Sequence record: HE978309
DNA length: 64,000 nt
Strand: one strand, 5' to 3'
From: Enterobacteria phage GEC-3S
Part shown: piece after piece, positions 4,596 through 25,696 of the stretch
Layout: the number at the start of each line of letters is the position of its first letter
Numbering within the stretch: the first letter of the stretch is position 1
Notes under the pieces: model-generated
What the model was told of the DNA's origin: nothing
The model's database searches: none
The model's input: the letters and a program-made list of their open reading frames with translations, nothing else
Made by a program: the position numbers and the translations under genes

Positions 4596-4623
4596 ATTAT
4601 AGCATACTCCCTTCGCATGTCAA
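4596..4623 (-). promoter_or_regulatory. sigma70-type early promoter (TTGACA, 16 bp, TATAAT) with -10 embedded in GGGAGTAT/ATACTCCC inverted repeat
   Basis: hexamers and 8-bp inverted repeat (4590-4611) read directly. Confidence 0.6.
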
Positions 4624-5798
4624 GCACTAACTTTTTTCTTTACTGCTTTCACCTTCTGGCGAATTGCTCGAATCTCTTCGATCTCTTTTTCAGTATCTTT
4701 AACAATTTCTTTGCGATTCTGAATATCTTTATCGAGATTATCATCAAGTTTAGGCAGCATGTCAATCAAGAACTTTTTAAGGTCTTTCAGGTTGCGAATA
4801 ACAGTACCTTCACCCATTACCGCCACGCCTACACCATCCGGCAGATCACCAAACAGTTTAACCAGTTCAGACAGATGATCATGATCTTCTAGTGCTTCTT
4901 CCGGTTCAGATGGCAGTTCAACAAAGTAATAACGTTCATCATTGCTGATCAGGTGATACCAGCAAAGCCCAAAAGATTTAGGAGTATATTCTACACCACC
5001 AACTTCAACTGCGTCAACACTTCCGAAAGAATCTACTTTAGTTACCTTAAATCCATGTTCCAGCGTTTTAATAATTTCAATAACATGACTGGATACGGTT
5101 TCAGTATTAAACCAATGAGGCAAATTATGTGGATTTGGCTTGTATCGTTCGCCTACTTTAAATCTCTGACCACGCTCTTGCATACGGACATATTCAACTC
5201 GCGTGATTTCCGCGAAGTATTCAAATTCGCTACCGTCAAACAAGCAATTCCATTGATCACAAAAACGATCCGCCTTGACGGTTTCACCTTTCGCGGTGAT
5301 CATGGTAGCTGATCCGTGCAATTCTTCTTCAACTAAAAAGCCATATTCTACAAAATCAACAAGTTTCATGGCTTCTTTGTGCTCTGGGTCATGCTCTCCC
5401 CAGAATCGCTTAAATTCTTGCAAACCTTCTGGGGTAAACGAATAACATTTACCTTTTTCAAAGTAAGTCGGCATTGCATCCTCTTTCTTGTTCATCGCTT
5501 CGTATGCCTCTTTTGAGATACGTTTAAAGTATTTGCGCTCATTGTGCATAATCATAGTAGCCCAATAATAAACGATATCCTCAGCGGAATAAACTACATC
5601 TCCAGCTTCAATAGTAATAACATGACCGTTGTCATCTTTTTCTAATACTTTAAAGCCCTTTTCTACGATTTCAGCAACCCGAATATGACCACGGCGCGAA
5701 GCATCGGTCAGAATAATTGAATAGCGAGAAAAGTCTAGAAACTCATCTTTACCACCTTCACGGAATGCATAGTAATGACCTTCAAAGAATTTAGCCAT
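4620..5798 (-). CDS. hypothetical protein, paralog family member with two internal GFKV-type repeats
   Basis: track ORF; shares NGFKVL...ERKYFKRI(S/T)K with the two downstream paralogs; GAGGATTATATTATG leader. Confidence 0.65.
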   Translation of the reverse strand: MAKFFEGHYYAFREGGKDEFLDFSRYSIILTDASRRGHIRVAEIVEKGFKVLEKDDNGHVITIEAGDVVYSAEDIVYYWATMIMHNERKYFKRISKEAYEAMNKKEDAMPTYFEKGKCYSFTPEGLQEFKRFWGEHDPEHKEAMKLVDFVEYGFLVEEELHGSATMITAKGETVKADRFCDQWNCLFDGSEFEYFAEITRVEYVRMQERGQRFKVGERYKPNPHNLPHWFNTETVSSHVIEIIKTLEHGFKVTKVDSFGSVDAVEVGGVEYTPKSFGLCWYHLISNDERYYFVELPSEPEEALEDHDHLSELVKLFGDLPDGVGVAVMGEGTVIRNLKDLKKFLIDMLPKLDDNLDKDIQNRKEIVKDTEKEIEEIRAIRQKVKAVKKKVSA

Positions 5799-5829
5799 AA
5801 TATAATCCTCTCGTTGTTTAGATGGGAGT

Positions 5830-5858
5830 ATCTTACTACTCCCGTTTCATCATGTCAA
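5830..5858 (-). promoter_or_regulatory. sigma70-type early promoter (TTGACA, 17 bp, TAAGAT) with GGGAGTAG/ACTCCC inverted repeat around the -10
   Basis: read directly; near-identical copy at 6740-6768 and 28571-28599. Confidence 0.55.
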
Positions 5859-6421
5859 GCGTTAAATGACTTTTGGATCTCTTTCAGTTCAGCTACTTTA
5901 TAGGCGCTGAATTTAGCGTAGGTATCATGTCGAATAATTTCACTTTCAAGAAAGGTTTCCAGCCGAGATCTATTTTCAATAAGGAACTCTTTCAGGTCTT
6001 CCGCGTTCTTGATAAAGATTTTATTGTCAGTAATGTCATCTTCAATCGCAAAGGAGATAGAGCGAACTTTACCAAACAAGTTAATCAGATCTTCCAGAGA
6101 TTCTTCTTTCTTAACTGGTTTCATTTCTTCAAACTGCTTTTTAGTGATGCGTTTAAAGTATTTGCGCTCGTTTGCAGCAATCAGAACAGATGCACCTTCA
6201 TACCCATGAGTTTCTACCAGATACACACGCCCCATCGCATCAACAGTGAGAACTTTAAAGCCGTTACAAAGCACGTCATACAAGAACTTATTATGTTGCG
6301 GACATCGTTTGATAAATTCTGCGGCTGTTTCTGCACTACGGAAAGTATAGTAACGACCTCGTTCAAAAACAGCATCATTTGAAGACTTAGCCGGATACAC
6401 TTTATACATTTTCTGTACCAT
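5855..6421 (-). CDS. hypothetical protein, paralog family member (one GFKV-type repeat)
   Basis: track ORF; start moved to the ATG behind GAGGATTATATT. Confidence 0.6.
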   Translation of the reverse strand: MVQKMYKVYPAKSSNDAVFERGRYYTFRSAETAAEFIKRCPQHNKFLYDVLCNGFKVLTVDAMGRVYLVETHGYEGASVLIAANERKYFKRITKKQFEEMKPVKKEESLEDLINLFGKVRSISFAIEDDITDNKIFIKNAEDLKEFLIENRSRLETFLESEIIRHDTYAKFSAYKVAELKEIQKSFNA

Positions 6422-6435
6422 AATATAATCCTCTA

Positions 6436-6708
6436 TCATTTCACTAATTGAACAGCACGAAACAGAATGCGGTCACACGGAAGCAGCATAAATTCCCAAC
6501 GCGGATCAAAGTCTTTAGCGGTATATGTTTTCCCATCAACCGAGATTTCACTTACATAACCAATAGGTGACACTTTAAGAACAGTAAATCCATTCTTGAT
6601 TGCTTCGTAGGTATCTTTCAGACCTTCGTAGTCGTCCTCTAAGAAGTCTTTATGTGCTTGCTCAGATTTAAAAACATAGGCCACACCGGATTTAAACATC
6701 TTACGCAT
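6436..6708 (-). CDS. hypothetical protein, short paralog family member
   Basis: track ORF begins with TTG; start moved to ATG behind AAGGAGAATCAACA. Confidence 0.55.
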   Translation of the reverse strand: MRKMFKSGVAYVFKSEQAHKDFLEDDYEGLKDTYEAIKNGFTVLKVSPIGYVSEISVDGKTYTAKDFDPRWEFMLLPCDRILFRAVQLVK

Positions 6709-6739
6709 TGTTGATTCTCCTTCTTGATTAGATGGGAGC

Positions 6740-6768
6740 ATTTTACTACTCCCATTTCTTATTGTCAA
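6740..6768 (-). promoter_or_regulatory. sigma70-type early promoter (TTGACA, 17 bp, TAAAAT) with GGGAG/CTCCC inverted repeat around the -10
   Basis: read directly. Confidence 0.55.
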
Positions 6769-6771
6769 CTA

Positions 6772-7245
6772 CTATCTTAATCTTTGTATGAATTGTTTCT
6801 TATACTTCTTCGTGATTTCTTCTCGTGTATCAGCGTCGCAGTAATCGAAACCTTCTGCGTCCATAATAGCAACCATCTCCGCTCGTGTCAAGCGTGAAAA
6901 TCGTTTTACTTTATCAACAGCATATTGAGGATGTAAATGATTGTTGGTGTAGTCTCCTTTGATGTAATTAACATAGTTTGTAGCCCAAACAACGAAATCA
7001 GCACCTAAAGCACCAACACCAAACCGTTTAAAGTCTCCGGTCAACGATCCTTCTAGGCGGTTGCAACACGAATGAAGCAATCCCCTTACGCGGCCTTGCC
7101 CTTTCCCATCTAGATCGTGGTCGTGGTCAAGATGGTTTTTGCTCATATCCTCAAAAAGTGGCAATTGACAAAGGGGGCAAATGCCCCCCTGTTTTTCGAA
7201 TAGTTCTTGTTTGTACTCTTTAGCACTCTTAGCAGTCAGTAACAT
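6772..7245 (-). CDS. 49: endonuclease VII (Holliday junction resolvase, T4 gp49)
   Basis: N-terminus MLLTAKSAKEYKQ and Cys/His motifs CPLCQ, NHLDHDHD match my recollection of T4 endonuclease VII; 157 aa from the ATG behind GGAGGGTG. Confidence 0.9.
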   Translation of the reverse strand: MLLTAKSAKEYKQELFEKQGGICPLCQLPLFEDMSKNHLDHDHDLDGKGQGRVRGLLHSCCNRLEGSLTGDFKRFGVGALGADFVVWATNYVNYIKGDYTNNHLHPQYAVDKVKRFSRLTRAEMVAIMDAEGFDYCDADTREEITKKYKKQFIQRLR

Positions 7246-7269
7246 AAATTCACCCTCCAAAGAAGGTAT

Positions 7270-7551
7270 TTAACCATTAATCTTGTTTTTGACTACAAAG
7301 GATCGGAACTCATCAAAACCACCGATATAATCACCATCATAGAAAATCTGCGGCATGGTGGCAATAACTTCTACCCCTGCGCGATCCTGAATATCGGCAA
7401 TGATAGAATCAATCTTTACCGGGCGACCGTTTTCGTCCACACCATCATTAACCGGAATGTAGATGTAAGGGATCTTACGCGCTTCACAAAGGCGCTTTGC
7501 ATTCTGGCAATACTTACAGTTGTAACCTTCAAAACCAAAAATTTCTACCAT
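7270..7551 (-). CDS. nrdC: glutaredoxin/thioredoxin-like protein (T4 NrdC-like)
   Basis: CKYC redox motif, TMPQIF and GGFDEF motifs; start moved to ATG behind GAGGT. Confidence 0.8.
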   Translation of the reverse strand: MVEIFGFEGYNCKYCQNAKRLCEARKIPYIYIPVNDGVDENGRPVKIDSIIADIQDRAGVEVIATMPQIFYDGDYIGGFDEFRSFVVKNKING

Positions 7552-7552
7552 G

Positions 7553-8308
7553 TTATACCTCATTCAGTTCTATATCAAGTTCATTTTCAATAATATAGGC
7601 ATTAACTGCCCGTGCCGCATCATCTTCTGTGTCAAATCTTCCTATATACACACCGCGAACTTTAGCACCGTAATTACCTTGTTTTGGTACTTTGTAAACG
7701 TATCTATGACGGGAACTTGCTGCTTTTTGGAGCTTCTTGCCATATTCAGACTTTGCATATTCTATATCATCAATCTCGTTTATACAAGACCTATCACCAA
7801 AATGTTTCAACGCTGCAAGATTATATGCATACGCCGCACCGATCTCGGAGGGAAAATATCCTAAATGTATAGACTTCCCATCCAACATTATTGCACCAGT
7901 CCAATAACCTTTATTCTTATTAAACGACACACCTTTATACTTCGAATATGTTTTGCATTTGGTCTTGCTCATATTCATATTATTTTGTTTGCTTGTCGTC
8001 TCTCTAAGGTTTTCAATGCGGCTATTATAACGATCTCGGTCTTTATGATCTATATACTTAGGACAATGACCATGAAACATATGATAGATAACACGGTGCA
8101 TACGTTCGTATCGCTCGCCAGTCCATACAATACGATACCCATCGGGGGTATCACTTCCAGCTAATCCGTTTATAACACCTTTTCGGTGCGGGTGAATCTT
8201 CCACCTAAGAAAACCATCATCATAATAAAACCGTGAATGATATAAATCATATAAACGTTTATCTTCTGGAGTCTTGTGTATAACCTCATATTTTAACATT
8301 GGTGACAT
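7553..8308 (-). CDS. HNH homing endonuclease with two AP2-type DNA-binding domains (Mob-like)
   Basis: HNH core IDHKDRDRYNSRIENLRETT; AP2-like YKGVSF...GAAYAYN and GAKVRG...EDDAARAVN; paralog of the ORF at 35956-36696. Confidence 0.8.
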   Translation of the reverse strand: MSPMLKYEVIHKTPEDKRLYDLYHSRFYYDDGFLRWKIHPHRKGVINGLAGSDTPDGYRIVWTGERYERMHRVIYHMFHGHCPKYIDHKDRDRYNSRIENLRETTSKQNNMNMSKTKCKTYSKYKGVSFNKNKGYWTGAIMLDGKSIHLGYFPSEIGAAYAYNLAALKHFGDRSCINEIDDIEYAKSEYGKKLQKAASSRHRYVYKVPKQGNYGAKVRGVYIGRFDTEDDAARAVNAYIIENELDIELNEV

Positions 8309-9101
8309 AAACTTCCTTAGTATCGGATTTTTTACCCCCGCTACGATCTAAACAATATGTTTTATCCAGTTCAACAACAGAAACATCATTACGTTCGATA
8401 AAATCAAGCAAATGGTTGTTAACTTTCCCTTTGTGGTGAGTAACATTGCTTAATCCAAACTTAGCACCGCTAGACATTAATGATTCTATCCACATGTAGA
8501 ATTTAATCTCTTCTTCTTCACTCCAGAACTTATTATATTCTGCCGACGTGATCCAATATGGCGGATCAAGGAAAACGAAATCACCTGGCAAGATCTCGAT
8601 CTCGTCATAGCGACCAGACGTAAAACTGATTCGACCGTCTTTGTTTTCTTCCTTAAAATTCAGGACACGCTCTACCGCGTTTTCGTTAAAAGTCCGGCGA
8701 CCAAAATTAGCATTAAATTCTCCCTTTCGGTTATGGCGGTTAATGTTGCTAAAACTGTGCTGAATCAACACAAACAGCGATAGCGGATCTGGATTCTCGT
8801 TATACTTCTTACGGAATGTCATGTAAGCGTCTTTATCTTCGCGAGACAAACCATTTTCGGCAATAATACGCTTGATCGTAGAAACCGGATCAGGACACTC
8901 GTCAATCGCTTTGTACGCGTCAATTAAGCGGTGATCATAGTCATTAGCCAGCACATCACCTTCGACGTACAGAGACACGCTCAAGCCTCCACAGAAGGCA
9001 TCAACAAAGCGGTTATAGCGCTTAGGGAAATACTTACTAACACCTGGCAATAGCTTTTCCTTATTGCCAGTATAGGGAATTAAACCTAATGCTTTCTTCA
9101 T
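8286..9101 (-). CDS. dam: DNA adenine methyltransferase (T4 Dam-like)
   Basis: SAM motif FVDAFCGGLSV and catalytic FLDPPY; resembles T4 Dam as I recall it. Confidence 0.9.
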   Translation of the reverse strand: MKKALGLIPYTGNKEKLLPGVSKYFPKRYNRFVDAFCGGLSVSLYVEGDVLANDYDHRLIDAYKAIDECPDPVSTIKRIIAENGLSREDKDAYMTFRKKYNENPDPLSLFVLIQHSFSNINRHNRKGEFNANFGRRTFNENAVERVLNFKEENKDGRISFTSGRYDEIEILPGDFVFLDPPYWITSAEYNKFWSEEEEIKFYMWIESLMSSGAKFGLSNVTHHKGKVNNHLLDFIERNDVSVVELDKTYCLDRSGGKKSDTKEVYVTNVKI

Positions 9102-9532
9102 TATCCCTTCCTCAAATAAGTTCGCTCAATCTCTACCCGTTCGAAAAAATCTTGCCAGTCGCAAGGAAAATTGCAGTTTCCGAAATGATCCTCTTTGTAA
9201 AGTTCTTTACCGGATGGCAGCTTAATATCTGTTACGCTGTAGTATCCGCAACAATCGCAATCACCATCTGTATATTCTGTTTTGGTAGGAATATCCATCA
9301 TTGCCAGATACAAAGGTACATCGTCTTGCTCAAAGTTCATGTAACCTTCATGGTCGAATGAAACAAAGTTATCATCGCCACCGAAAGGGATATAATGGTC
9401 ATAATCGGTTACAGGTTGACCGTGCAATTCCCATTCTACAATTTTAACATTACCGCTAAACTTGATACCCATAATTTCAACAAGAAAATGAGTATCGTCA
9501 ATGTAAATCTTACTAGGAGTTGGATAACCCAT
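9101..9532 (-). CDS. hypothetical protein
   Basis: track ORF; GAGGATTATATAATG leader. Confidence 0.6.
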   Translation of the reverse strand: MGYPTPSKIYIDDTHFLVEIMGIKFSGNVKIVEWELHGQPVTDYDHYIPFGGDDNFVSFDHEGYMNFEQDDVPLYLAMMDIPTKTEYTDGDCDCCGYYSVTDIKLPSGKELYKEDHFGNCNFPCDWQDFFERVEIERTYLRKG

Positions 9533-9542
9533 TATATAATCC

Positions 9543-9839
9543 TCATATCTCAGAGAATAGAATCTCTGTTAGCTTCACTGACTGCTCTCTGAATGTTAGC
9601 GTATACTCGAAAGGAAAGTCAACACCCAACTTCAAAAGAGAATAGCCTACCGCCTCTTTATGCTTATCGGTTAGGGCGATCCTAACCAATTCCCGTTGAA
9701 TCTCTTTAGGCGGTGAATGGATAGTAACACGGGTATCATGTAATGTCCAGTCACCATTTCGAATTAAGATTAACGGTTTATCATCATTGAAGATCACCGA
9801 CCCCTTTCCGGTCGGTGAGTGTTTTATACTAATCATCAA
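9543..9839 (-). CDS. hypothetical protein
   Basis: track ORF on the coding strand; start overlaps the upstream gene. Confidence 0.5.
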   Translation of the reverse strand: MMISIKHSPTGKGSVIFNDDKPLILIRNGDWTLHDTRVTIHSPPKEIQRELVRIALTDKHKEAVGYSLLKLGVDFPFEYTLTFREQSVKLTEILFSEI

Positions 9840-10050
9840 ATTCTAAGAAATATTCTGGAACGATATAACCGTTAAAGTCATTGCACTTATAAAAATGTGG
9901 TGCATTTAATGCTGGATGAGCATTAGTAAAGAGTTTACCCTCTAGAAACAGAATGTAATTAATCGGTCTAATACCGACAGAATCAGGGTCTAAACCTTTT
10001 TCTTTCAGTTCAGCCAGCGTTAAAACTCGTCCAGATCTTAACTTAGCCAT
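9829..10050 (-). CDS. hypothetical protein
   Basis: track ORF; GGGGGT before ATG. Confidence 0.55.
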   Translation of the reverse strand: MAKLRSGRVLTLAELKEKGLDPDSVGIRPINYILFLEGKLFTNAHPALNAPHFYKCNDFNGYIVPEYFLEFDD

Positions 10051-10336
10051 GATTTACCCCCAATTCATCAAGATTATGTCGCAGCATTTCAGAGTATTTT
10101 TCTACTTCCTTAATCTTAGTGTGGATCTCCACGATCTCATCCACACTATCAGAAATTTTAATGGCATTCGCGAGCGTGCTTTTACCCGCTTTCACAGTCT
10201 CTTTCATTTCAACCAACATGTCCGCGTGTTTCAATAGTAATTCTTCACGTCGAACATAAGCGGCGGTCAAAGCCTCATCAGCGATTTCTAAAGCATTTTC
10301 AGCGACACCAACAACCATTTTACGAGTAGACAGCAT
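10043..10336 (-). CDS. hypothetical protein (predicted coiled coil)
   Basis: track ORF; GAGGTG before ATG. Confidence 0.55.
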   Translation of the reverse strand: MLSTRKMVVGVAENALEIADEALTAAYVRREELLLKHADMLVEMKETVKAGKSTLANAIKISDSVDEIVEIHTKIKEVEKYSEMLRHNLDELGVNHG

Positions 10337-10350
10337 AAATTCACCTCACA

Positions 10351-10659
10351 TTATTTCACGTTAACGCCGTCATCAATCCAGCCGACGCTATTTGGTTTAA
10401 CAGTTTTACCATAGGATGCATACTTAATCAAGCATGGTTTAACATCATTATCAAATCTTCCTAAACGTACTCCCAAATCAGGAATATCCATGTATGCGGC
10501 TTTATATCCCCATGTGCCATATTCAGAATCAATCTCAACCGGACGGCCTTTAAAAGCATACACTACACCGTGACGGTCAACGATAACATAGCAATAGCCA
10601 GCCGGAAGATACACCGTTTCTCCGTAAACTTTAACTGGAGTAGCAGAAGAGATAAACAT
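10351..10659 (-). CDS. hypothetical protein
   Basis: track ORF; GAGGATTATATTATG leader; promoter upstream. Confidence 0.6.
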   Translation of the reverse strand: MFISSATPVKVYGETVYLPAGYCYVIVDRHGVVYAFKGRPVEIDSEYGTWGYKAAYMDIPDLGVRLGRFDNDVKPCLIKYASYGKTVKPNSVGWIDDGVNVK

Positions 10660-10693
10660 AATATAATCCTCACATCGTTCATTTGATGCGGTT

Positions 10694-10722
10694 ATTATAG
10701 GATAACCGCATTTTCATGTCAA
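10694..10722 (-). promoter_or_regulatory. sigma70-type early promoter (TTGACA, 17 bp, TATAAT) with -10 inside GCGGTTAT/ATAACCGC inverted repeat
   Basis: read directly. Confidence 0.6.
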
Positions 10723-10729
10723 CAGTTTT

Positions 10730-11038
10730 TTAAAAATCTTCTTCCGGTTTATATCGACCGTCATCGACTGGTTTTGGACTGAATCCTTTATGCGTGCGCG
10801 GCTTCGCTTCCGGTTTCCCCGCGATCGACAGTCCAAGCCATTTAAGAAGTTTGTATGAGTAAGCGATGATCACAACTACCCACGTTAAAGGCCATACAAT
10901 AGAACAAATGGCATATGCTCCGGTATCGACCTCTTTGGTGTCCTTGTCGAATCTGGCATACAAGCAAATTATAAGATAGGTGATCATTGCACCAGTAGGC
11001 CAAATATAAAGCACATTAACAATATCTTGTGTTGTCAC
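10730..11038 (-). CDS. small membrane protein (GTG start)
   Basis: AAGGAGG 6 nt before GTG at 11036-11038; hydrophobic segments; the track ORF extends further upstream into the preceding gene. Confidence 0.5.
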   Translation of the reverse strand: MTTQDIVNVLYIWPTGAMITYLIICLYARFDKDTKEVDTGAYAICSIVWPLTWVVVIIAYSYKLLKWLGLSIAGKPEAKPRTHKGFSPKPVDDGRYKPEEDF

Positions 11039-11048
11039 GTTATCCTCC

Positions 11049-11327
11049 TTACATGTCTTGCAGTGCATAAAAGCATTTTTCTTCGTAGTCATAGAAAATG
11101 TCAAAGTATGCTTTTTCTACATACTCACCATTGATCCAAGCGGCAGTAACAATCAGAGTGGTCCAGTTAGATCCGCTCTCAACGGTAAAGGTTTTAATAC
11201 CCAGCTTCGCTGCTAAGTCGAACGCAAACCGGACACAACCACGGCAGGAAGTGATATTGGAAGTTTTGATTTTAATGCCACCGCGAGTTTTAGAAATTTC
11301 TACTTTAGCGAAAGACAGGTTGCTCAT
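11049..11327 (-). CDS. hypothetical protein
   Basis: track ORF; AAGGAGAATCAAAATG leader. Confidence 0.6.
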   Translation of the reverse strand: MSNLSFAKVEISKTRGGIKIKTSNITSCRGCVRFAFDLAAKLGIKTFTVESGSNWTTLIVTAAWINGEYVEKAYFDIFYDYEEKCFYALQDM

Positions 11328-11369
11328 TTTGATTCTCCTTAAGAAAGTGTGTTTCGTTTTGATGTGTTT

Positions 11370-11398
11370 AGTATAGGGGATACGTGATCCCCTGTCAA
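11370..11398 (-). promoter_or_regulatory. sigma70-type early promoter (TTGACA, 17 bp, TATACT) with GGGGAT/ATCCCC inverted repeat in the spacer
   Basis: read directly. Confidence 0.55.
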
Positions 11399-11414
11399 CA
11401 ACTTTTTTATGATT

Positions 11415-11735
11415 TTAGTGAATTAACTCTACACCAAAATGAGGCACAGAGAACGCCTTACGAAACACATATTCATCATGTTTAGGAATCGCCCCTAACC
11501 GCTCTATTTCGCTCGCTGACACGATAAACCGCTTATCTGGTGCATTTACCTTATATGCTTCAACAACGCACGGAAAACGCGTTTTATCGAGTTCTGGATA
11601 GTTTTCCGAATCCATCAGGACAATGAATACCCTATTACATTGATTGTAGAATCCTGTTTTTGATTTCATCAAGTTTTCTTCTATGTTCAAGTCGTGCAAT
11701 CTTCTTTTCATGATTTCGTTGGTTCTTGTCTTCAC
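11415..11735 (-). CDS. hypothetical protein; start uncertain, overlaps upstream ORF out of frame (possible frameshift)
   Basis: track ORF with GTG start; no ribosome-binding site at any in-frame ATG. Confidence 0.35.
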   Translation of the reverse strand: MKTRTNEIMKRRLHDLNIEENLMKSKTGFYNQCNRVFIVLMDSENYPELDKTRFPCVVEAYKVNAPDKRFIVSASEIERLGAIPKHDEYVFRKAFSVPHFGVELIH

Positions 11736-11973
11736 AGTTTACCCACTCAACAAGATCTTTACCTAACTCGAAAGCCCATTCTCGGTCCTGCTTTACGTTT
11801 TGTAGGTATGGACTTTCCGACACTCGACGAAGTGATGTTGTCGTAACAAGAATGATCCCAGGAATGTTCGGATGTTCCTTTCCATATACAATAGGACGCG
11901 AGTCACTATCAATACCTTGTAAGAAGGTGTATCCTGAATCACTTAGAATCATATACTTTTTCATTTCACACAT
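11635..11973 (-). CDS. hypothetical protein (possibly 5' part of a frameshifted gene)
   Basis: track ORF; GAGGAAA before ATG at 11973. Confidence 0.45.
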   Translation of the reverse strand: MCEMKKYMILSDSGYTFLQGIDSDSRPIVYGKEHPNIPGIILVTTTSLRRVSESPYLQNVKQDREWAFELGKDLVEWVNCEDKNQRNHEKKIARLEHRRKLDEIKNRILQSM

Positions 11974-12230
11974 CACAGTTTCCTCAACCAGTTATTAAAG
12001 CTAGCAAACCATGATGCTTTTCGTGCTTCTTTGACTTTATGTGCACGTAAACCACTGAAACACCATTCATAATCATCACTGAAACATGATTCAACAGGAA
12101 CACCCGCATTTCGTAGTTCTCTGGTCGTTATCATGAATCCTTGACATAATGGGCGACCTTCAACAATGATAGGAAGTTTAACTTTTTCCATGAAAGTATA
12201 CCCAGCACGGTCAATAATTTCAATCTTCAT
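11973..12230 (-). CDS. hypothetical protein, MKIEIID paralog A
   Basis: track ORF; GAGGATTATATTATG leader; similar to the adjacent ORF over the N-terminal 60 aa. Confidence 0.6.
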   Translation of the reverse strand: MKIEIIDRAGYTFMEKVKLPIIVEGRPLCQGFMITTRELRNAGVPVESCFSDDYEWCFSGLRAHKVKEARKASWFASFNNWLRKL

Positions 12231-12248
12231 AATATAATCCTCAATTAG

Positions 12249-12446
12249 TTATACCGCCCAGGCTTCATTTGCACGAAAACACCATTCATATTCAGGAAAA
12301 TAACCTTTAATTGGTACGCCAGCTTTTTGTAGTTCCTGCGTTTCTACAAGATAATCAAGCCCATAACGACGACCTTCCACGATGATCGGAAGTTTAACGC
12401 CATTCATGAAAGAAAATCCACCGTCATCAATAATTTCAATTTTCAT
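12249..12446 (-). CDS. hypothetical protein, MKIEIID paralog B
   Basis: track ORF; GGAGA before ATG; tandem paralog of 11973-12230. Confidence 0.6.
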   Translation of the reverse strand: MKIEIIDDGGFSFMNGVKLPIIVEGRRYGLDYLVETQELQKAGVPIKGYFPEYEWCFRANEAWAV

Positions 12447-12690
12447 TTACATTATCTCCATAGATCTTTCCAGCAATATCAATTTCACCAGCGCGAACAT
12501 CTAGGATAAGATGCGGTAGGTGTATGCAGTTTTCCCACCCCACGCGCTTCATTTCTTCTACGGTAACGTAAGCCCACCCGTTCGCTGTAATAAAGTCTAC
12601 TTCAACCTTGAGAGGAAAGCAAGACTTTTCTATGTCTTCGAATCCGACAATATGTTTTGTTGTTGAATATGGAATATATCCGGTGATCAT
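12436..12690 (-). CDS. hypothetical protein
   Basis: track ORF; AAGGAGA before ATG. Confidence 0.6.
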   Translation of the reverse strand: MITGYIPYSTTKHIVGFEDIEKSCFPLKVEVDFITANGWAYVTVEEMKRVGWENCIHLPHLILDVRAGEIDIAGKIYGDNVNEN

Positions 12691-13121
12691 TTTGTGATCT
12701 CCTTATACTCAACACACCATAAGCGGGTAGCCCATGATAAACGCTCATAACGCTGGCAGAAATCGGACCATAGATATTGTGTACCGTCTTGCATAGTTGA
12801 AATATGCGTTTTCTCGCCCACTTTCACGAAAGATGTATTTGACTTCGTGATCACGACCGGAGTATATCCGAAAGCGGGTTCCAACTCAACATCTGAACTA
12901 AATGCCAATTTAACAGAATTTGTTTTTCTGACCGCTGTCCGGTTTCCTTCTGGGTATAGCACAGCAGGTTTAGCTCCTAAGCGGATAAACTCAGTGTTTT
13001 TAATGAACAGAATATCATGATAACCGTCATATTCCGACACTTCCATAGTAACAGGAAAATCGATATGTGCTAAACCTGGTAGATCTCGCATATCATGAAA
13101 TGTAGCCATAATCTTTTTCAT
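12687..13121 (-). CDS. hypothetical protein
   Basis: track ORF; start moved to the ATG behind GAGTGAGGA (MKKIMATF...). Confidence 0.55.
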   Translation of the reverse strand: MKKIMATFHDMRDLPGLAHIDFPVTMEVSEYDGYHDILFIKNTEFIRLGAKPAVLYPEGNRTAVRKTNSVKLAFSSDVELEPAFGYTPVVITKSNTSFVKVGEKTHISTMQDGTQYLWSDFCQRYERLSWATRLWCVEYKEITK

Positions 13122-13131
13122 TCTATATTCC

Positions 13132-13329
13132 TCACTCTTCTGTTTCATTTCTTTTATATGGTACTATAACAGGATTAATACAGCAAGCACCAATTACGTT
13201 ATGAGCACCACAATTTAAGCATTTATAATCATGGAACTTATTAAGGAATCGACCAAACTCATAACCGACTAGCGCCGCTTGTACTTGAGTCTCGATCTCA
13301 TCCATATCAGCCAATGTTTTAACCTTCAT
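13132..13329 (-). CDS. small Cys-rich protein (zinc-ribbon-like, CLNCG...GACC)
   Basis: track ORF; GAGGATTATACTATG leader. Confidence 0.6.
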   Translation of the reverse strand: MKVKTLADMDEIETQVQAALVGYEFGRFLNKFHDYKCLNCGAHNVIGACCINPVIVPYKRNETEE

Positions 13330-13339
13330 AGTATAATCC

Positions 13340-13624
13340 TCAAATGGTAGTTTTGCGAAGATGGTCGTTACATGCTTTTAATGCATCAGTCGCGGTGTCA
13401 TAGCGAGTATTATCATAGCACCAGTAACCATCTGTCAACTGATAAATCAATCCATCTTTTTTAGCTTCGATGAAAGATAACTCTTTGAAAGTTTCTACTT
13501 TCTTTGCTGATACTCCACGGCGTTTATAGAGTTTAGCTAAAATGCGTTCAGCTTGTTCCTCTTTATCACCAGACAGATCCCAGATGATGTTTCGGATATG
13601 CTTGATTAATTGTTCAGTGGTCAT
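13340..13624 (-). CDS. hypothetical protein
   Basis: track ORF; AAGGAGAATCAAAGATG leader; promoter upstream. Confidence 0.6.
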   Translation of the reverse strand: MTTEQLIKHIRNIIWDLSGDKEEQAERILAKLYKRRGVSAKKVETFKELSFIEAKKDGLIYQLTDGYWCYDNTRYDTATDALKACNDHLRKTTI

Positions 13625-13653
13625 CTTTGATTCTCCTTAGTTGGTATGCGTGC

Positions 13654-13681
13654 ATTATAGCATTGTGATTATCTTTGTCAA
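13654..13681 (-). promoter_or_regulatory. sigma70-type early promoter (TTGACA, 16 bp, TATAAT)
   Basis: read directly; sits immediately downstream of the terminator at 13687-13718. Confidence 0.6.
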
Positions 13682-13686
13682 CACCC

Positions 13687-13718
13687 AAAAACAAAAAAGG
13701 CTACCCCGAAGGATAGCC
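13687..13718 (-). terminator. rho-independent terminator after the gp38-like gene
   Basis: GGCTAtCC-TTCG-GGgTAGCC hairpin followed by TTTTTTGTTTTTG on the minus strand. Confidence 0.65.
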
Positions 13719-13725
13719 CATAAAA

Positions 13726-14505
13726 TTACACGCGAGCACCGTAGATCGTGCCTACTTTATCCCAGCGAGGGGCATTGCCAGTAACAGCCTTACCAGCCGC
13801 ACCACCGTTATATTCCGATCCCTGTCCACGGATATTACATTTACCACCAGCACCACCAGCATCACCACCGTTACCGCCATTATATACACCGTTTACAGAC
13901 CCTTTACCTGGCGCGGAAATAGTACCAGCAGTAGCACCCTGTTCCATATTAGCAGACCCACCGGCAGCACCAAACGGACGCCCACCGCCACCGCCAAAGG
14001 TTAATCTCATTTGTGAAAAAGGAGAATAATACCCACCGCCGCCGCCGCCACCACCACCGCAAATAGCGCCGTTATTTGTGATGCGTAAGCGTGTGCCTAT
14101 ACCGTTGTTAATTGCATTACCACCAGCGCCACCAGCGGAGTTATTGCCACCATTACCACCACGCCCCCAAACATGAACACCTGGGTTAATGATCAATGTT
14201 ACATATTCGTTTGTTAACGAGCTAGGGAAGTCAAGACAAGGAACTCCAGTAGATTGGGAAACAATATTACCCGTGATAGTAATTACTACCGGAGTAGATC
14301 CCTGTGCTTTCATCCAGTTAATAAGAGTGTCTTTATTGTAAGAGTTACTAGCACCAATGCTATAATGAATCTCTTTAGAGCGTCCGACCATTGCCGACAT
14401 ATACGCCGGACGACCTAAGCGAACAGCTTGCATTGCGGCGCTCATCCACCGTTGACCAGTCTCGGACACCGCAGATGATCCTACCCATCCAGAAGATATT
14501 GCCAT
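13726..14505 (-). CDS. gp38-like receptor-binding adhesin (distal tail-fibre tip) with five glycine-rich motifs
   Basis: N-terminus WVGSSAVSETGQRWMS, GRGGNGGN, GGGGGGGGGYY, C-terminus VGTIYGARV recall T2-type gp38; GAGGAAA before ATG; located in the early region, not beside gene 37. Confidence 0.6.
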   Translation of the reverse strand: MAISSGWVGSSAVSETGQRWMSAAMQAVRLGRPAYMSAMVGRSKEIHYSIGASNSYNKDTLINWMKAQGSTPVVITITGNIVSQSTGVPCLDFPSSLTNEYVTLIINPGVHVWGRGGNGGNNSAGGAGGNAINNGIGTRLRITNNGAICGGGGGGGGGYYSPFSQMRLTFGGGGGRPFGAAGGSANMEQGATAGTISAPGKGSVNGVYNGGNGGDAGGAGGKCNIRGQGSEYNGGAAGKAVTGNAPRWDKVGTIYGARV

Positions 14506-14520
14506 AAAATTTCCTCACAA

Positions 14521-14541
14521 GAAAAGCCCCAATTAAGGGGC
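14521..14541 (-). terminator. short hairpin terminator upstream of the gp38-like gene
   Basis: GCCCC-ttaatt-GGGGC followed by TTTT on the minus strand. Confidence 0.45.
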
Positions 14542-14559
14542 ATTGATTGATAATATTAC

Positions 14560-14781
14560 TTAGATGACCTCTGCTTCACCATCCAGGAAGAAAGACCATG
14601 TTTTGTTAGGATAGCGAAGCGCCCATGATTCAGCAGTTTTAACACCAGCTTCGAACAATTGACGGCTGGTTACTTTAGCCATACCATCTTCGATGGCAAC
14701 GTTTTCAATAATCATCGGGTACTTAGCGCCACGCATGAAACCGAAACCAGCGGAAGATTTGATAATTTTAACAGTTGCCAT
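14560..14781 (-). CDS. hypothetical protein, distant MKIEIID-family paralog
   Basis: track ORF; AGGAGAATCAAAAATG leader; shares FM.G.K.P.I.E...AGV pattern. Confidence 0.55.
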   Translation of the reverse strand: MATVKIIKSSAGFGFMRGAKYPMIIENVAIEDGMAKVTSRQLFEAGVKTAESWALRYPNKTWSFFLDGEAEVI

Positions 14782-14822
14782 TTTTGATTCTCCTAGAAAG
14801 TGTATCTCGTTTCGATGTGTGT

Positions 14823-14851
14823 ATTATGCAATAACACCGGAACGCTGTCAA
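14823..14851 (-). promoter_or_regulatory. sigma70-type early promoter (TTGACA, 17 bp, CATAAT)
   Basis: read directly. Confidence 0.55.
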
Positions 14852-14869
14852 CACTTTCTAAGAAAAATT

Positions 14870-15154
14870 TTAAACTAATCGAATGTAACCCAAAATTTCA
14901 GCACTTTTAGCCAGATCTAAAATTTCCCATTCAAGATCGCCGTAGTCATAATTTGCAACCATCAACTGACCATTTTTCATGCAGCAATCATGAGAGAAAA
15001 TTTGCCCCGCATAAACTACGATAGTGATAAACTTTCCTGATTCTGGCGGTGTGGAAGACAAAGCGACCATATGACCATTCAGCTTAGTCACCAGTGATGG
15101 AACAATAAAATTCGGGCTTACCTTAATACCGTTAAATTCGTTTGTGTCTTTCAT
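14870..15154 (-). CDS. hypothetical protein
   Basis: track ORF; coupled to upstream gene. Confidence 0.55.
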   Translation of the reverse strand: MKDTNEFNGIKVSPNFIVPSLVTKLNGHMVALSSTPPESGKFITIVVYAGQIFSHDCCMKNGQLMVANYDYGDLEWEILDLAKSAEILGYIRLV

Positions 15155-15501
15155 GCCAGACCTCGCAAAACACTAATAGCATAATCATGCTGGTTATTCA
15201 TAATATCAATTGCATTGTGATAACGAGCTAAACCATCAAGGATAAATTCTTGTTTATCCTGTTTCAGTTTGGTATCACGCGCAGCCATAAGAGCATCGAG
15301 AACAGGTCCAAAGTGATTATCTAATTCATCTTCGGTTGCAATGTTTCCTATTGCCTCGTCGATCCGTGATTCTAATGCTTGCTTTTCGTTGATCACTTGC
15401 TGGGTATATTCCAACACATCAAGAATATCGCGGGTAACGTCGCCATGATAAGGTATTCCCGCATGAAGATGATCAATTAATCGCTGAATATCAATGTTCA
15501 T
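15151..15501 (-). CDS. hypothetical protein
   Basis: track ORF; GAGGAGGG before ATG. Confidence 0.55.
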   Translation of the reverse strand: MNIDIQRLIDHLHAGIPYHGDVTRDILDVLEYTQQVINEKQALESRIDEAIGNIATEDELDNHFGPVLDALMAARDTKLKQDKQEFILDGLARYHNAIDIMNNQHDYAISVLRGLA

Positions 15502-15836
15502 TTGTAACCCTCCTCTGAAAGCACATCCCAGATCGTTGAGTCAAGGTGCATTAAATTCCACATAATAGAGTCATAACTACCGAAGCCAGAAGTAAAAATT
15601 ACATCACACTGGCGATAGGTCTTATGAAAATCGGTGGCTGTCTCTGCATCAATCGGCATATCGTCACCAGAAAGCACCAGACATTTAAGAATCATAACTC
15701 TGTTAGCCGTTGGCGCTTGCTTAGTCTTTTCAGCATATTTTTCGATGATCCGTTTTGCCTTTTCTTCTTTGATACGTCCAGACCAAATCCGGTTTCGGTA
15801 TTGATTCATAATAATTTCAATCACATCATTTTGCAT
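15498..15836 (-). CDS. hypothetical protein
   Basis: track ORF; GGAGA before ATG. Confidence 0.55.
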   Translation of the reverse strand: MQNDVIEIIMNQYRNRIWSGRIKEEKAKRIIEKYAEKTKQAPTANRVMILKCLVLSGDDMPIDAETATDFHKTYRQCDVIFTSGFGSYDSIMWNLMHLDSTIWDVLSEEGYK

Positions 15837-16035
15837 TCTTCACGGTCTCCATAATTGTTTTGTAAGCCAGCTTAAGATGATCGCCGAAAAACTTTGCGGT
15901 GTTACCCTTCGGATCGCGGAGCATGGTTTCTACGATCTCATCGGCAGTAACAATTTCTCCTTTCTTTGCTGCATGTTCTACCATATACTTCAAAGTTTCT
16001 TCGGAAGCAAGTGCTGCGGCTACTGGATTAATCAT
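15826..16035 (-). CDS. hypothetical protein
   Basis: track ORF; AAGGAGAATCAAAATG leader. Confidence 0.6.
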   Translation of the reverse strand: MINPVAAALASEETLKYMVEHAAKKGEIVTADEIVETMLRDPKGNTAKFFGDHLKLAYKTIMETVKNAK

Positions 16036-16064
16036 TTTGATTCTCCTTTGTTGTCGATGTGTGC

Positions 16065-16093
16065 ATTATGCTATACTACGATCCGGTTGTCAA
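16065..16093 (-). promoter_or_regulatory. sigma70-type early promoter (TTGACA, 17 bp, CATAAT)
   Basis: read directly. Confidence 0.55.
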
Positions 16094-16098
16094 CACCT

Positions 16099-16133
16099 AA
16101 AAACGAAAAAGCCACCCTTTCGGGTGGCTTTTT
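16099..16133 (-). terminator. rho-independent terminator, potentially bidirectional
   Basis: AGCCACCC-tttc-GGGTGGCT hairpin flanked by an A-tract and a T-tract. Confidence 0.65.
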
Positions 16134-16363
16134 GATTATATTTTATTCACGTCCATTTGTATAGTAGTGTTTGAATCGACCTTTGCTAAACTAGTTAAAC
16201 ATAGTAACCAATTCACCATCCCTTTCCAATGATAACACTTCCTCGTCTTAGACGGGTCTTCTGATTCGGCAGTAATTGAACACGCGAAAGTATGAGGAAG
16301 CCAAATAGTTGTGTTGATGCTAGTATTCTTTTACTTCTGGTATGTATCCCAATGTGACTAACA
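16134..16363. other. about 230-bp non-coding interval; candidate structured RNA or long 3' UTR
   Basis: no ORF over about 30 aa on either strand; contains CTTCCTC...GAGGAAG inverted repeat; boundaries approximate. Confidence 0.25.
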
Positions 16364-16762
16364 TTAAGCCAATCGAGTGAGTTTATAAATTGTTTTAAAG
16401 CATAGAGCTTTGATATCGTCTAAAACGCTCTGTAACGAGCTATCAACATCATTATAAATCTCACTAGCCATTTGCGTTAACTCTTGCAAATAGGCAATTT
16501 CGCTCATCTCCTTGCGGACGACCAACGTTGGCTGATAACGACCAGTGATCCCAATATTGGTTTCAGTGAAATTATCAACCAATTCTTGCATTTCAAGATA
16601 GAACTCTTCTAGAGCCTTATGTTTTGCATAAGATCCCGGACCAGTTACCCCAAAATGCGCAGAATGCATATAAGTAACACTCATCAGACATTCACCGATA
16701 AAGCGGTCAACTTTATTAGCTTTCCCCTCTTCGGACGTCTTTAGAAAATCAATGAATTTCAT
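16364..16762 (-). CDS. hypothetical protein
   Basis: track ORF; start moved to ATG (MKFIDF...) behind GGAGA. Confidence 0.5.
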   Translation of the reverse strand: MKFIDFLKTSEEGKANKVDRFIGECLMSVTYMHSAHFGVTGPGSYAKHKALEEFYLEMQELVDNFTETNIGITGRYQPTLVVRKEMSEIAYLQELTQMASEIYNDVDSSLQSVLDDIKALCFKTIYKLTRLA

Positions 16763-17051
16763 GTTCTCTATTCTCCATATTATGCAACATAACAAACTGT
16801 TGTGCGGCATATTCCCCCATAATAAAACACTGCTTAGAATCCATACATTTACTACGAGCGTACATCTTCATAACGTGGGCATGAAATTTCTGGCTGGTTT
16901 CAATGGAAGGAGATATTTTGTTTACATATACTATCATTGCACCGTCGAAATAATCAGTAAAGTCACCAGTTGGATCATATTGATCAGCACTGACACTTCC
17001 GACCGCAGTCAAGCATATTGCCGCTGTTAGAGTTTTACGAATAAATGACAT
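16749..17051 (-). CDS. rI: lysis-inhibition regulator rI-like periplasmic protein
   Basis: N-terminal signal/anchor MSFIRKTLTAAICLTAVGSVSA; about 100 aa; sits next to tk as rI does in T4; Cys spacing resembles T4 RI as I recall it. Confidence 0.6.
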   Translation of the reverse strand: MSFIRKTLTAAICLTAVGSVSADQYDPTGDFTDYFDGAMIVYVNKISPSIETSQKFHAHVMKMYARSKCMDSKQCFIMGEYAAQQFVMLHNMENREHEIH

Positions 17052-17120
17052 AAGTCATTCCCCCAGATTTAAAAATATTCAGTTATATTTATAATCTGGG
17101 GCTTTATTTATGATTAACTC

Positions 17121-25688: not shown

Positions 25689-25696
25689 AATATACC

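Follow-up and report, generated by a model that had tools for sequence, protein, structure and literature searches.

Early-region gene 38 of a Krischvirus coliphage: a chimeric tail-fibre adhesin gene in its lineage-typical place

Introduction

The closest described counterpart of the locus considered here is gene 38 (g38) of phage RB49, which encodes the adhesin of the long tail fibre and is annotated at a displaced position in the RB49 reference genome (RB49p079, NC_005066 45367..46143). A passage of Trojet 2011, for which Desplats 2002 is the primary source, gives RB49 as an exception to the adjacency of g37 and g38, and from the RB49 annotation and papers of 2011, 2025 and 2026 the early-region g38 is already known as the norm for Krischvirus. 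The RB49 protein has been connected with host range, in that the mutations E230K and Y231S map to gp38, one monomer of which caps each of the six fibres (PMC9569957); RB49 is also listed as OmpA-targeting, with its receptor-binding protein modelled against OmpA (bioRxiv 10.64898/2026.04.02.716166). The related g38 genes of the T2/T6/S16 type, in contrast, occupy the late strand immediately downstream of g37, before the holin gene.

Two further lines of earlier work bear on this locus. Nolan 2006 predicted both g38-flanking terminators and both neighbouring early promoters for RB49, and predicted no late promoter for its g38; RB49 lacks MotA and middle promoters (PMC1524935). Arbiol et al. 2010 (PMC2839356) described the PeSL elements of RB49 and phi1, defined as an intergenic stem-loop plus a consensus sigma-70 promoter, followed by a Shine-Dalgarno sequence and start codon, in the hyperplastic region; g38 is not mentioned there. 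Our search of the literature for Krischvirus transcripts, promoter mapping and virion proteomes returned none (K1B4 belongs to Kagunavirus, and RB49 is not mentioned in the text on the PhageExpressionAtlas).

Here we analyse a 64,000-nucleotide stretch of DNA (the window), which belongs to the genome of a Krischvirus (RB49-like) coliphage and has g38 at the same position and among the same neighbours as RB49, phi1, JSE and other Krischvirus orthologues.

Results

The minus-strand gene at 13726..14505, which starts with ATG, encodes a 259-aa long-tail-fibre adhesin, as identified from its open reading frame and its Pfam and PDB matches. The original prediction took the product for a T2-type gp38, and protein searches bear out a T2/S16-type gp38 adhesin over the full length: Gp38_N (PF21721) matches the N-terminus (residues 1-40 of 40, E=3.9e-18), the GP38 profile (PF05268) matches residues 45-259 through profile positions 1-218 of 218 (E=9.1e-73), the product matches PHROG 2056 (E=4e-102), and residues 1-257 align to 1-247 of the receptor recognition protein gp38 of S16 (PDB 6F45_D, E=2.3e-50), with a second PDB match to 9V85_A (E=8e-31). 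The motifs quoted in support of that identification all occur in the translation (WVGSSAVSETGQRWMS, GRSKEI, GRGGNGGN, the G9-YY run, FGGGGGRPFGAAGG, GGNGGDAGGAGG, NGGAAGK and VGTIYGARV). After Gp38_N comes the glycine-rich GP38 domain, which contains five glycine-rich motifs (GRMs); this layout is shared, like the family itself, with gp38 of the T2/T6/S16 type (6F45 chain D; slur04/ECO78); by homology to solved gp38, the domain would adopt a polyglycine-II fold. Across the 7-11 gp38 proteins aligned, the glycine runs are invariant and variation falls between them.

By analogy with T2/S16 gp38, the N-terminal domain would be expected to cap the tip of gp37 after cleavage of the gp37 C-terminal chaperone, and the glycine-rich C-terminal domain, with its hypervariable loops, to bind the host receptor. 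Gene 37 lies outside the window, and we examined the chaperone domain in the closest relative, E26, whose gp37 carries a Peptidase_S74 domain (PF13884) at residues 873-932 (E=1.5e-11). Presence in the virion and a role in receptor binding and host range are likewise expected of this gp38 from the published RB49 orthologue.

The gene divides into parts of distinct ancestry. The conserved N-terminal part (codons 1-105, 14191..14505, minus strand), which includes the gp37-tip docking domain, is genus-specific: it shows 98-100% amino acid identity across the Krischviruses with an early-region g38 (class A) and about 80% to Tequatrovirus, and its 105 residues are identical to those of RB49 gp38. 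The receptor-specificity segment (codons ~107-240, 13786..14187, minus strand), in which GRMs alternate with hypervariable stretches, is a recombination hotspot, and only there does within-genus DNA identity fall, to 48-80%. In this segment the window carries a different allele from RB49 (71% aa, 66% nt) and stands nearer to Tequatrovirus slur04/ECO78 (93-94% aa, 80-81% nt); it falls in the allele group of E26, JEP8, JK32 and Makalu. This gp38 is thus a chimera: its N-domain is that of Krischvirus, while its specificity segment has its nearest counterparts among Tequatrovirus alleles, against a baseline between the two genera of 48% for the holin and 39-49%, in patches, for gp37. Host range evolves through recombination within g38.

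Two other accounts were rejected. Recent acquisition of the entire gene from Tequatrovirus does not fit, given that DNA identity over all of g38 is only 76-79%, that DNA homology ends at the ORF boundaries, and that the specificity segment alone is nearer to Tequatrovirus than to RB49. Exchange of a cassette within the genus at the flanking hairpins does not fit either, since the boundaries of divergence lie inside g38, near codons 107 and 240.

All neighbours of g38 are minus-strand genes of early type (tk, rI, regB, vs, dam, nrdC and endonuclease VII, named from an annotated relative), and g37 is absent from the window, in agreement with the earlier reading of the gene as lying on the early strand far from gene 37. 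The usual but not defining position of a gp38 gene, directly downstream of gene 37, is not the one found here: g38 sits in the hyperplastic early region, and the circular map puts about 55 kb between it and gene 37. In E26, whose gp38 is 99.6% identical to that of the window, g37 lies about 106 kb from g38 on the linear map, and the fibre locus runs g34-g35-g36-g37, a 79-aa ORF in the slot after g37, and the holin gene, with no g38. We note in passing that the position had seemed surprising when T4 was the standard of comparison; measured against Krischvirus, the arrangement is ordinary.

The original prediction had offered two readings of this position, a relocated sole copy or a silent or low-expressed spare cassette. 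The former is correct, in that a single gp38 homologue was found in 42 of the 42 Krischvirus genomes with the early-region arrangement, and the E26 fibre locus holds no g38. The latter, a silent or weakly expressed adhesin gene kept for recombination into the fibre locus and thereby for host-range switching, might draw on the hairpins that bracket g38, on its lack of a promoter of its own, and on the swapping of gp38 specificity segments between phages. It is nevertheless refuted by the single copy in 42 of 42 genomes, by the g38-less fibre locus of E26 and by the mapping of the RB49 host-range mutations to this same early-region gene; moreover, Krischviruses with a g37-adjacent g38 have no early-region copy rather than a retained one, and the boundaries of exchange lie inside g38 and not at the hairpins. 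We consequently give the spare cassette next to no credence. The predicted recombinational switching of host range does occur, in the specificity segment of the active gene, and not through a spare copy moved into the fibre locus.

Comparison with Krischviruses that lack an early-region g38 delimits the segment that differs. A 911-nt segment (the g38 cassette, 13649..14559, minus strand) is present here and replaced by 37 nt in those phages: on an empty-site contig, homology to the window stops at 14560 and restarts at 13648. The empty site, found in 13 cultured phages, consists of one textbook PeSL at the exact site of the cassette, TTGACA-CGGGGAGAAATCCCCG-TATAAT, with the stem-loop within the promoter spacer. 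The element just downstream of g38 in the window also has the composition of a PeSL and resembles the RB49/phi1 cassettes (Arbiol et al. 2010, PMC2839356): a stem-loop (13719..13698), a promoter TTGACA-16-TATAAT (13681..13654), and then GGAGAATCAAAG-ATG. The hairpin upstream of g38 differs from the RB49/phi1 PeSLs in having no promoter, and the cassette differs from theirs in carrying an essential virion gene, not an ORFan. Because the cassette lies at a PeSL, a type of element already linked to the shuffling of modules in RB49 and phi1, its gain or loss was likely mediated by PeSL recombination, as judged from the positions of the breakpoints.

About one quarter of Krischviruses (class B: G2494, G5211, kvi, LF73P4, FL04/FL15/FL20, KMB43, MIZ4/5 and others) lack the early-region g38, show one PeSL in its place, and have an imported g37-g38 module in the fibre locus; the difference between the classes was noted in passing by Lutz et al. 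2025. They share the backbone of the window, with ORF73/ORF94 flanks about 97% identical (97% for ORF73 itself) and a holin 98% identical to that of E26. Their g38, in contrast, encodes a 266-aa protein only 41% identical to that of the window and directly follows a Tequatrovirus-like g37.

The opposite polarity, in which the ancestor of Krischvirus had g38 next to g37 and the gene moved to the early region later, within the genus, we regard as unlikely, if still a serious contender. Adjacency of g37 and g38 is the rule in the T4 superfamily (37 of 39 IMG/VR loci, gathered with an alignment query, a single-sequence scan having yielded only 2), and similarity in the flanks is the same, about 97%, for both classes. 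Against this, the g37 and g38 of class B share 85-89% nt identity with Tequatrovirus modules in genomes that are otherwise distant (48% aa for the holin between the genera), which points to import; three class-B phages, which between them show two g38 junctions, retain beyond the g38 stop a non-coding remnant of the class-A g37, its final codons AAAAAGAATTAA (KKN-stop); and class A is in the majority, with at least 42 records versus 13-14.

A hairpin stands on each side of g38, as had been predicted. The upstream one (GCCCCTTAATTGGGGC with the U-tract TTTTCTTGT, 14517..14541, minus strand) lies between ORF73 and g38; its stem (14541..14526) has 5 G-C pairs and a 6-nt loop, with a centroid energy of -11.2 kcal/mol, and is followed by TTTTCTTG. 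It is invariant in 8 relatives and was identified by folding and through its RB49 counterpart, '38<--RB49ORF080c', which TransTerm gives as a 5-bp terminator with confidence 90 (Nolan 2006). The distance to the ribosome-binding site had been put at 16 nt and needs correction: the stem ends 9 nt from the GAGGA Shine-Dalgarno sequence and 20 nt from the ATG. The downstream element (13687..13719, minus strand) is a strong intrinsic terminator that ends the g38 unit, with a 9-bp stem, a TTCG loop and a T-run; its hairpin GGGCTATCCTTCGGGGTAGCC (13719..13698) has 9 pairs, -14.7 kcal/mol and z=-3.8, and is followed by TTTTTTGTTTT. Its RB49 counterpart is 'RB49ORF078c<--38' (confidence 100; Nolan 2006), so that RB49 shares the 5-bp hairpin, the 9-bp terminator and the flanking early promoters of the window. 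The flanks are almost invariant across Krischvirus, and the aligned relatives therefore yielded no covariation for either hairpin.

The upstream hairpin is probably a partial terminator, or attenuator, between ORF73 and g38. It has no sigma-70-like hexamer pair that would make it a PeSL composite at 14541..14526, and stands alone as a stem-loop with a U-tract. Many T2/T6/S16-type g38 genes likewise have a GC-rich hairpin just before the Shine-Dalgarno sequence. Under a strict criterion, an intergenic hairpin with 4 or more G-C pairs, a comparable hairpin stands before 26 of 38 g37-adjacent g38 genes; a looser cut-off (dG <= -8 in 70 nt) flagged 40 of 41 loci upstream of g38 and did not discriminate, hence the strict criterion. 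Being common at g37-adjacent loci, a hairpin before g38 is not a sign of silencing; the hairpins at those loci do, however, lack the U-tract found here.

The original prediction held that g38 has no recognisable promoter of its own, and our searches concur: the late promoter TATAAATA does not occur with 0 or 1 mismatch on the minus strand at 14506-15194, and no sigma-70-like site lies between the upstream hairpin and the ATG. Two other genes of this strand, rI and that of the gp57A-like chaperone, do have the exact TATAAATA. Neither TATAAATA nor A/T-ATAAATA, the mark of a T4-type, gp55-dependent late gene, is present within about 100 nt upstream of the gene or its operon. The nearest promoter upstream is a sigma-70-type early promoter (TTGACA-17-CATAAT, 11/12 consensus positions; 14823..14851, minus strand), conserved in 8 relatives and predicted in RB49 as Pe:46502 (Nolan 2006). 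It precedes the 73-aa ORF73 (14560..14781, minus strand; PHROG 7345), which is thereby the first gene in the unit to which g38 belongs. On the other side of g38, a perfect extended sigma-70 promoter (TTGACA-16-TG-TATAAT, 12/12; 13654..13681, minus strand; RB49 Pe:45336, Nolan 2006) serves the next gene. The g38 Shine-Dalgarno sequence, GAGGA (14512..14516, minus strand), is of the operon-internal type: in this phage operon-internal genes have GAGGAttatatt-type sequences, versus GGAGAATCAAA after promoters, the latter also being the form in the RB49/phi1 PeSL cassettes. Escape from RegB through the absence of its cleavage motif, GGAG, from the g38 Shine-Dalgarno sequence was considered and set aside as not distinctive, GGAG being present there in only 32 of 76 minus-strand genes.

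From this arrangement, the transcription unit would run from the sigma-70 promoter (14851..14823) through ORF73, the short hairpin with its U-tract and g38 to the strong terminator, with the PeSL beyond it. Expression of g38 is likely to come mainly from read-through of the weak upstream hairpin by transcripts of this early promoter, perhaps with a little added by the distant late promoter of rI. Since the hairpin has a good U-tract, 6 T of 8, and TransTerm gave it a confidence of 90, read-through could be low; low, early-starting expression may suffice, as few copies are needed per virion, estimating from one monomer on each of six fibres. An early-promoter origin for a virion protein is unusual among T4-like phages, which counts against early read-through.

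One alternative makes g38 a true late gene whose transcripts start at the rI late promoter (17086..17093, minus strand) and read through the intervening terminators, with little early-promoter input. Upstream of g38 the minus strand has no other exact TATAAATA, the site is predicted in RB49 as Pl:48756, and late timing would suit the need for gp38 during fibre assembly. The promoter is nonetheless 2.6 kb from g38, with a bidirectional terminator of -20 kcal/mol (16106..16133) and then the 14541..14526 hairpin on the way, and the strong, conserved sigma-70 promoter is much nearer; we consider this origin improbable.

More doubtful again, and in our view very unlikely, is an unrecognised promoter of g38's own in the 54-nt spacer that follows ORF73, such as one at the AT-rich TAATATTA (14558..14551), with the hairpin as an mRNA-stabilising 5' structure. 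TAATATTA lies roughly 45 nt before the ATG, a typical position for a T4-type late promoter, which favours this reading; the spacer is conserved in all relatives, and RB49 late promoters are relaxed at position -13 (PMC1524935). However, TAATATTA has three mismatches to TATAAATA, while the other late promoters in the window are exact, and was rejected as a late promoter of g38, the search at 0 and 1 mismatch having found nothing near the gene. Nolan 2006 predicted no promoter at the spacer, and its conservation is uninformative because everything in the g38 flanks is conserved.

Discussion

We are confident that g38 of this phage is one functional adhesin gene in the place typical of its lineage, as part of an overall explanation that includes expression by early read-through and PeSL recombination as the likely route of its movement. 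As to its main finding, this is a rediscovery, and it leaves knowledge of how host range is determined unchanged. What is added here is the class A/B site with its 911-nt cassette, the chimerism of gp38, the occurrence of hairpins at standard g38 loci, and a g38 without a late promoter.

A broader proposal, which we put forward only tentatively, is that an essential fibre-tip adhesin has been uncoupled from the gp55 programme, being expressed from an early promoter across a leaky terminator and carried in a mobile PeSL-bounded module which, like the accessory ORFans nearby, could be acquired, lost or handed from one co-infecting phage to another. If true, one genus would contain two regulatory regimes for its adhesin gene, in the early region of class A and in the late fibre operon of class B. 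The regulatory interest of the locus lies in a virion component that has no late promoter and sits behind a terminator-like hairpin.

Krischviruses are common candidates for phage therapy, and for genome-based prediction of their receptors, or for engineering them, the place to look for the adhesin gene is the early region in about three quarters of the genus and the neighbourhood of g37 in the rest. Because the pool of alleles is common to both genera, Tequatrovirus alleles can be used to interpret the specificity segment.

Early-region g38 of the window encodes a full-length adhesin

The minus-strand ORF at 13726..14505 encodes 259 amino acids, and its translation contains every motif quoted in the original prediction, which had assigned the product to the gp38 tail-fibre adhesins. 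Profile searches agree with that assignment: the entire Pfam GP38 profile (PF05268) is covered (E=9.1e-73), the N-terminal attachment domain Gp38_N (PF21721) is present (E=3.9e-18), the product belongs to PHROG 2056 ("tail fiber protein; host specificity", E=4e-102), and the solved gp38 of Salmonella phage S16 (6F45_D) matches it end to end (E=2.3e-50). On these matches, the ORF is a full-length gp38 adhesin gene (g38). Product names for g38 differ widely among records (tail assembly, distal long tail fiber assembly catalyst, hypothetical protein); the JEP8 record (L007, MT764208.1, 2233-2940) annotates a shortened 708-nt 'tail assembly protein', and the JEP8 sequence itself retains the full 259-aa ORF intact.

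The placement of g38 in the early region, away from the fibre locus, is likewise borne out, and is the usual Krischvirus arrangement. Over the 2.2 kb around g38, the window shares 92-97% identity with Krischvirus (RB49-like) coliphages, JEP8, Sf20, E26 and RB49 among them, and in all nine Krischvirus relatives whose locus was compared, g38 is flanked by the same small ORFs within the early region, tk/rI lying to one side and dam/nrdC/endonuclease VII to the other. The location had seemed surprising because T4, and not the genus to which the window belongs, served as the reference. RB49p079 is annotated in the RB49 reference genome as "g38; similar to T2 and RB69 gp38 adhesin", and the displaced gene is on record in Trojet et al. 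2011 (which cites Desplats 2002). Krischviruses FL37 and FL38 have a gp38 that is not near the holin (Lutz et al. 2025), and in five Krischviruses a 2026 preprint (bioRxiv 10.64898/2026.04.02.716166) puts the distance from gp37 downstream to gp38 at about 55 kb, with the suggestion that the gene was displaced, or acquired horizontally, in the ancestor of the genus. For RB49, Nolan et al. 2006 tabulate in their supplement terminators on both sides of g38 ("RB49ORF078c<--38", 9 bp; "38<--RB49ORF080c", 5 bp), flanking early promoters (Pe:45336, Pe:46502), and, as the closest late promoter, Pl:48756 before rI. The displaced g38, its hairpins and the absence of a late promoter are thus all already recorded for RB49. 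Our additions are incremental: a dimorphism between class A (early-region g38, as in the window) and class B (g38 directly after g37, early-region site empty), mapped with base-pair precision to a PeSL, the early promoter/stem-loop cassette of RB49/phi1; a relic of the g37 3' end; a chimeric allele; and the observation that hairpins generally precede g38.

The displaced gene is the sole copy

The original prediction offered two readings of this gene, a silent spare cassette or a relocated sole copy. By tblastn, the conserved N-terminal 107 residues of gp38 match exactly one site in each of 42 class-A-type genomes, and the full-length search gives the same single-copy picture. In E26, the closest relative, whose gp38 is 99.6% identical to that of the window, the fibre locus runs from g34-g35-g36-g37 (981 aa) through a 79-aa ORF to the holin; it contains no g38, the sole E26 copy lying about 106 kb off on the linear map. 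The C-terminus of E26 gp37 is a Peptidase_S74 intramolecular chaperone domain, as expected of gp38-capped fibres, and selected RB49 host-range mutants carried only gp38 substitutions, E230K and Y231S (Golomidova et al. 2022, PMC9569957). Taken together, these four lines of evidence identify g38 as the working adhesin gene; the early-region g38 is the relocated sole copy. The single gp38 in 42/42 genomes, the g38-free E26 fibre locus and the RB49 mutations rule out the silent spare cassette.

The 79-aa ORF (L002:14627-14866 in E26; L032:3839-4078) belongs to PHROG 402, of no known function, and has no Pfam match. It adjoins the holin in both classes, preceded by g37 in class A and by g38 in class B, and is the 'small ORF in the place of g38' of Trojet 2011.

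Flanking hairpins and expression of g38

Both predicted hairpins are present on the minus strand. The upstream one, GCCCCTTAATTGGGGC (14541..14526; ~-11 kcal/mol), is followed by TTTTCTTG; the downstream one (13719..13698; -14.7 kcal/mol, z=-3.8) has a 9-bp stem and a TTCG loop and precedes a T-run. The upstream hairpin does lie close to the ribosome-binding site, at 9 nt from the GAGGA Shine-Dalgarno rather than the 16 nt first given, a minor correction. A GC-rich hairpin also stands 5-18 nt before the g38 ATG at 26/38 g37-adjacent loci, so that a hairpin in this position is usual and does not preclude expression. What sets the window's hairpin apart is a real U-tract (6 of 8 bases T, versus 2-3). 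In two IMG/VR loci (L043, L044), the g37-g38 hairpin GGGGCTTAATTGCCCC, 5 nt before the g38 ATG, shares its TTAATT loop with GCCCCTTAATTGGGGC but has the G and C arms swapped; the shared loop may reflect a single ancestry or chance alone.

The absence of a recognisable late promoter belonging to g38 itself also held: the late-promoter motif TATAAATA does not occur on the g38 strand with <=1 mismatch in the ~690 nt upstream. Exact late promoters do occur on the same strand before rI (17093..17086) and at 29904..29897, about 80 nt upstream of a gp57A-like tail-fibre chaperone gene (29817..29557, minus, early strand; PHROG 1002, E=8e-26), and a missing one at g38 therefore carries weight. RB49 has no MotA and no middle promoters (PMC1524935). 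The closest promoter is a conserved sigma-70 element (14851..14823, minus) before ORF73, the 73-aa ORF upstream of g38, and the g38 Shine-Dalgarno, GTGAGGAAATTTT-ATG, is of the type found at operon-internal genes of GEC-3S. We consider it about an even chance that g38 stands second, away from the promoter, in an early unit of two genes, in which partial read-through of an attenuator would express it; few gp38 copies would be needed per virion, one monomer being described on each of the six fibres (PMC9569957). Read-through from the rI late promoter could also supply g38, but would have to cross a terminator of -20 kcal/mol and is unlikely; an unrecognised promoter within the 54-nt spacer before g38 is less probable still. 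We found no Krischvirus transcriptome or proteome in the literature.

Over the whole window, both strands, sites matching TATAAATA with <=1 mismatch number 85, where 127 +/- 12 would be expected (100/100 shuffles gave >=85), while exact matches (8) are at chance level; this depletion of near-consensus sites suggests selection against spurious gp55 sites. The minus strand of 1..32500 shows two stereotyped ribosome-binding contexts: GGAGAATCAAA-ATG at the first gene after a sigma-70/PeSL promoter (e.g., starts 893, 6708, 11327, 13624, 14781, 16035, 26729, 26981, 28539, 28980) and GAGGATTATATT-ATG at operon-internal genes (e.g., 4565, 5798, 6421, 9532, 10659, 12230, 13329). A 12-bp bidirectional terminator, AAAAAGCCACCCGAAAGGGTGGCTTTTT (16106..16133, both strands; -20.4 kcal/mol, z=-5.6), and the sigma-70 promoter that comes after it (16093..16065) form another PeSL, 76% similar over 81 nt to that downstream of g38. 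ORF73 (14560..14781; PHROG 7345, no known function) belongs to a paralogous small-ORF family repeated in the hyperplastic region (motif M..(K)I(E)II...G..FM...K.P.I.E...AGV...; also 12249..12446 and 11973..12230, all minus).

Class B Krischviruses and the cassette boundaries

Scanning IMG/VR with a gp38 alignment gave 39 loci, which we sorted by neighbouring genes. The gp37 C-terminus lies directly upstream of g38 in 37 of them, and one is an ordinary Krischvirus with displaced g38. One 150-kb contig is Krischvirus in its backbone (identity to E26: holin 98%, ORF79 95%) and has a 266-aa g38 directly after g37; its early region lacks g38, ORF73 running straight to the ORF94 homologue. The same contiguous empty site is present in 13 cultured Krischviruses (G5211, G2494, kvi, LF73P4, FL15, FL20, KMB43, G37-3, G2248, MIZ4, MIZ5, Skers and UPWr_E1), with the order g37-g38-ORF79-holin in those that could be examined. 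ORF73 is thus kept in phages without early-region g38 and is not tied to it.

The empty-site contig is homologous to the window up to exactly the ORF73 stop codon (14560) and again from 13648, just beyond the -10 box of the downstream promoter. The 911 nt between these breakpoints hold the hairpin, Shine-Dalgarno, g38, terminator and TTGACA-16-TATAAT; the class-B counterpart is 37 nt, TTGACA-CGGGGAGAAATCCCCG-TATAAT, a textbook PeSL with the stem-loop inside the promoter spacer, as in Arbiol et al. 2010 (PMC2839356). The polymorphism therefore sits at a PeSL. These elements were shown to promote and to terminate transcription strongly, and a role in module shuffling and mini-circle formation in RB49/phi1 was proposed for them (PMC2839356); that paper makes no mention of g38. 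From breakpoint position, we infer that the g38 cassette may have been gained or lost via the PeSL.

Class-B g37 and g38 are 85-89% identical in nucleotide sequence to Tequatrovirus modules, whereas the remainder of the two genera is far more diverged (holin 48% at protein level) and gp37 of E26 matches that of the Tequatrovirus slur04 in patches only (39-49%). After the g38 stop codon, three class-B phages carry AAAAAGAATTAAGGAAA, the first 12 bases of which equal the last three codons and stop of class-A g37 (K-K-N-stop); one of the three, LF73P4, has a different g38 allele and junction. This relic and the Tequatrovirus-like module suggest change from class A to class B: although the relic is short, class B probably arose from a class-A-type fibre locus by import of a g37-g38 pair, after which the old early-region g38 would have been lost. 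Such a loss makes functional sense, since class-A and class-B gp38 are only 41% identical and the gp38 N-domain presumably must fit the gp37 tip. In L037 (IMGVR_UViG_3300045988_028620), a gp37 C-terminus 58% identical to E26 is followed by an ORF matching the gp38 N-domain only (residues 1-44) and ORF79-like sequence (46%), which may be an intermediate or an alternative tip architecture.

A chimeric adhesin allele

Within the genus, identity exceeds 95% in the flanks and at both ends of g38 (~105 codons at the start, ~19 at the finish), and drops to 48-80% at codons ~107-240. The window's N-terminal segment (alignment columns 1-105) is 100% identical to RB49 at the amino acid level and 80-81% to slur04 and ECO78, Tequatroviruses with the standard g37-g38-t order; over the specificity segment (columns 106-245), the values are 71% aa/66% nt for RB49 and 93-94% aa/80-81% nt for slur04/ECO78. 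The window's gp38 is a chimera, which fits the known shuffling of gp38 by way of glycine-rich motifs (Trojet 2011). At the DNA level, similarity to Tequatrovirus g38 does not extend beyond the ORF and amounts to about 76-79% overall, which points to old or repeated allele sharing; recent whole-gene transfer from Tequatrovirus was rejected on the same values. The recombinational host-range switching first proposed is upheld as allele exchange acting on an active gene, not in the role given to a spare copy. Class-A Krischviruses carry at least three gp38 allele classes, and the chimera shows that the displaced g38 still takes its alleles from a shared adhesin pool.
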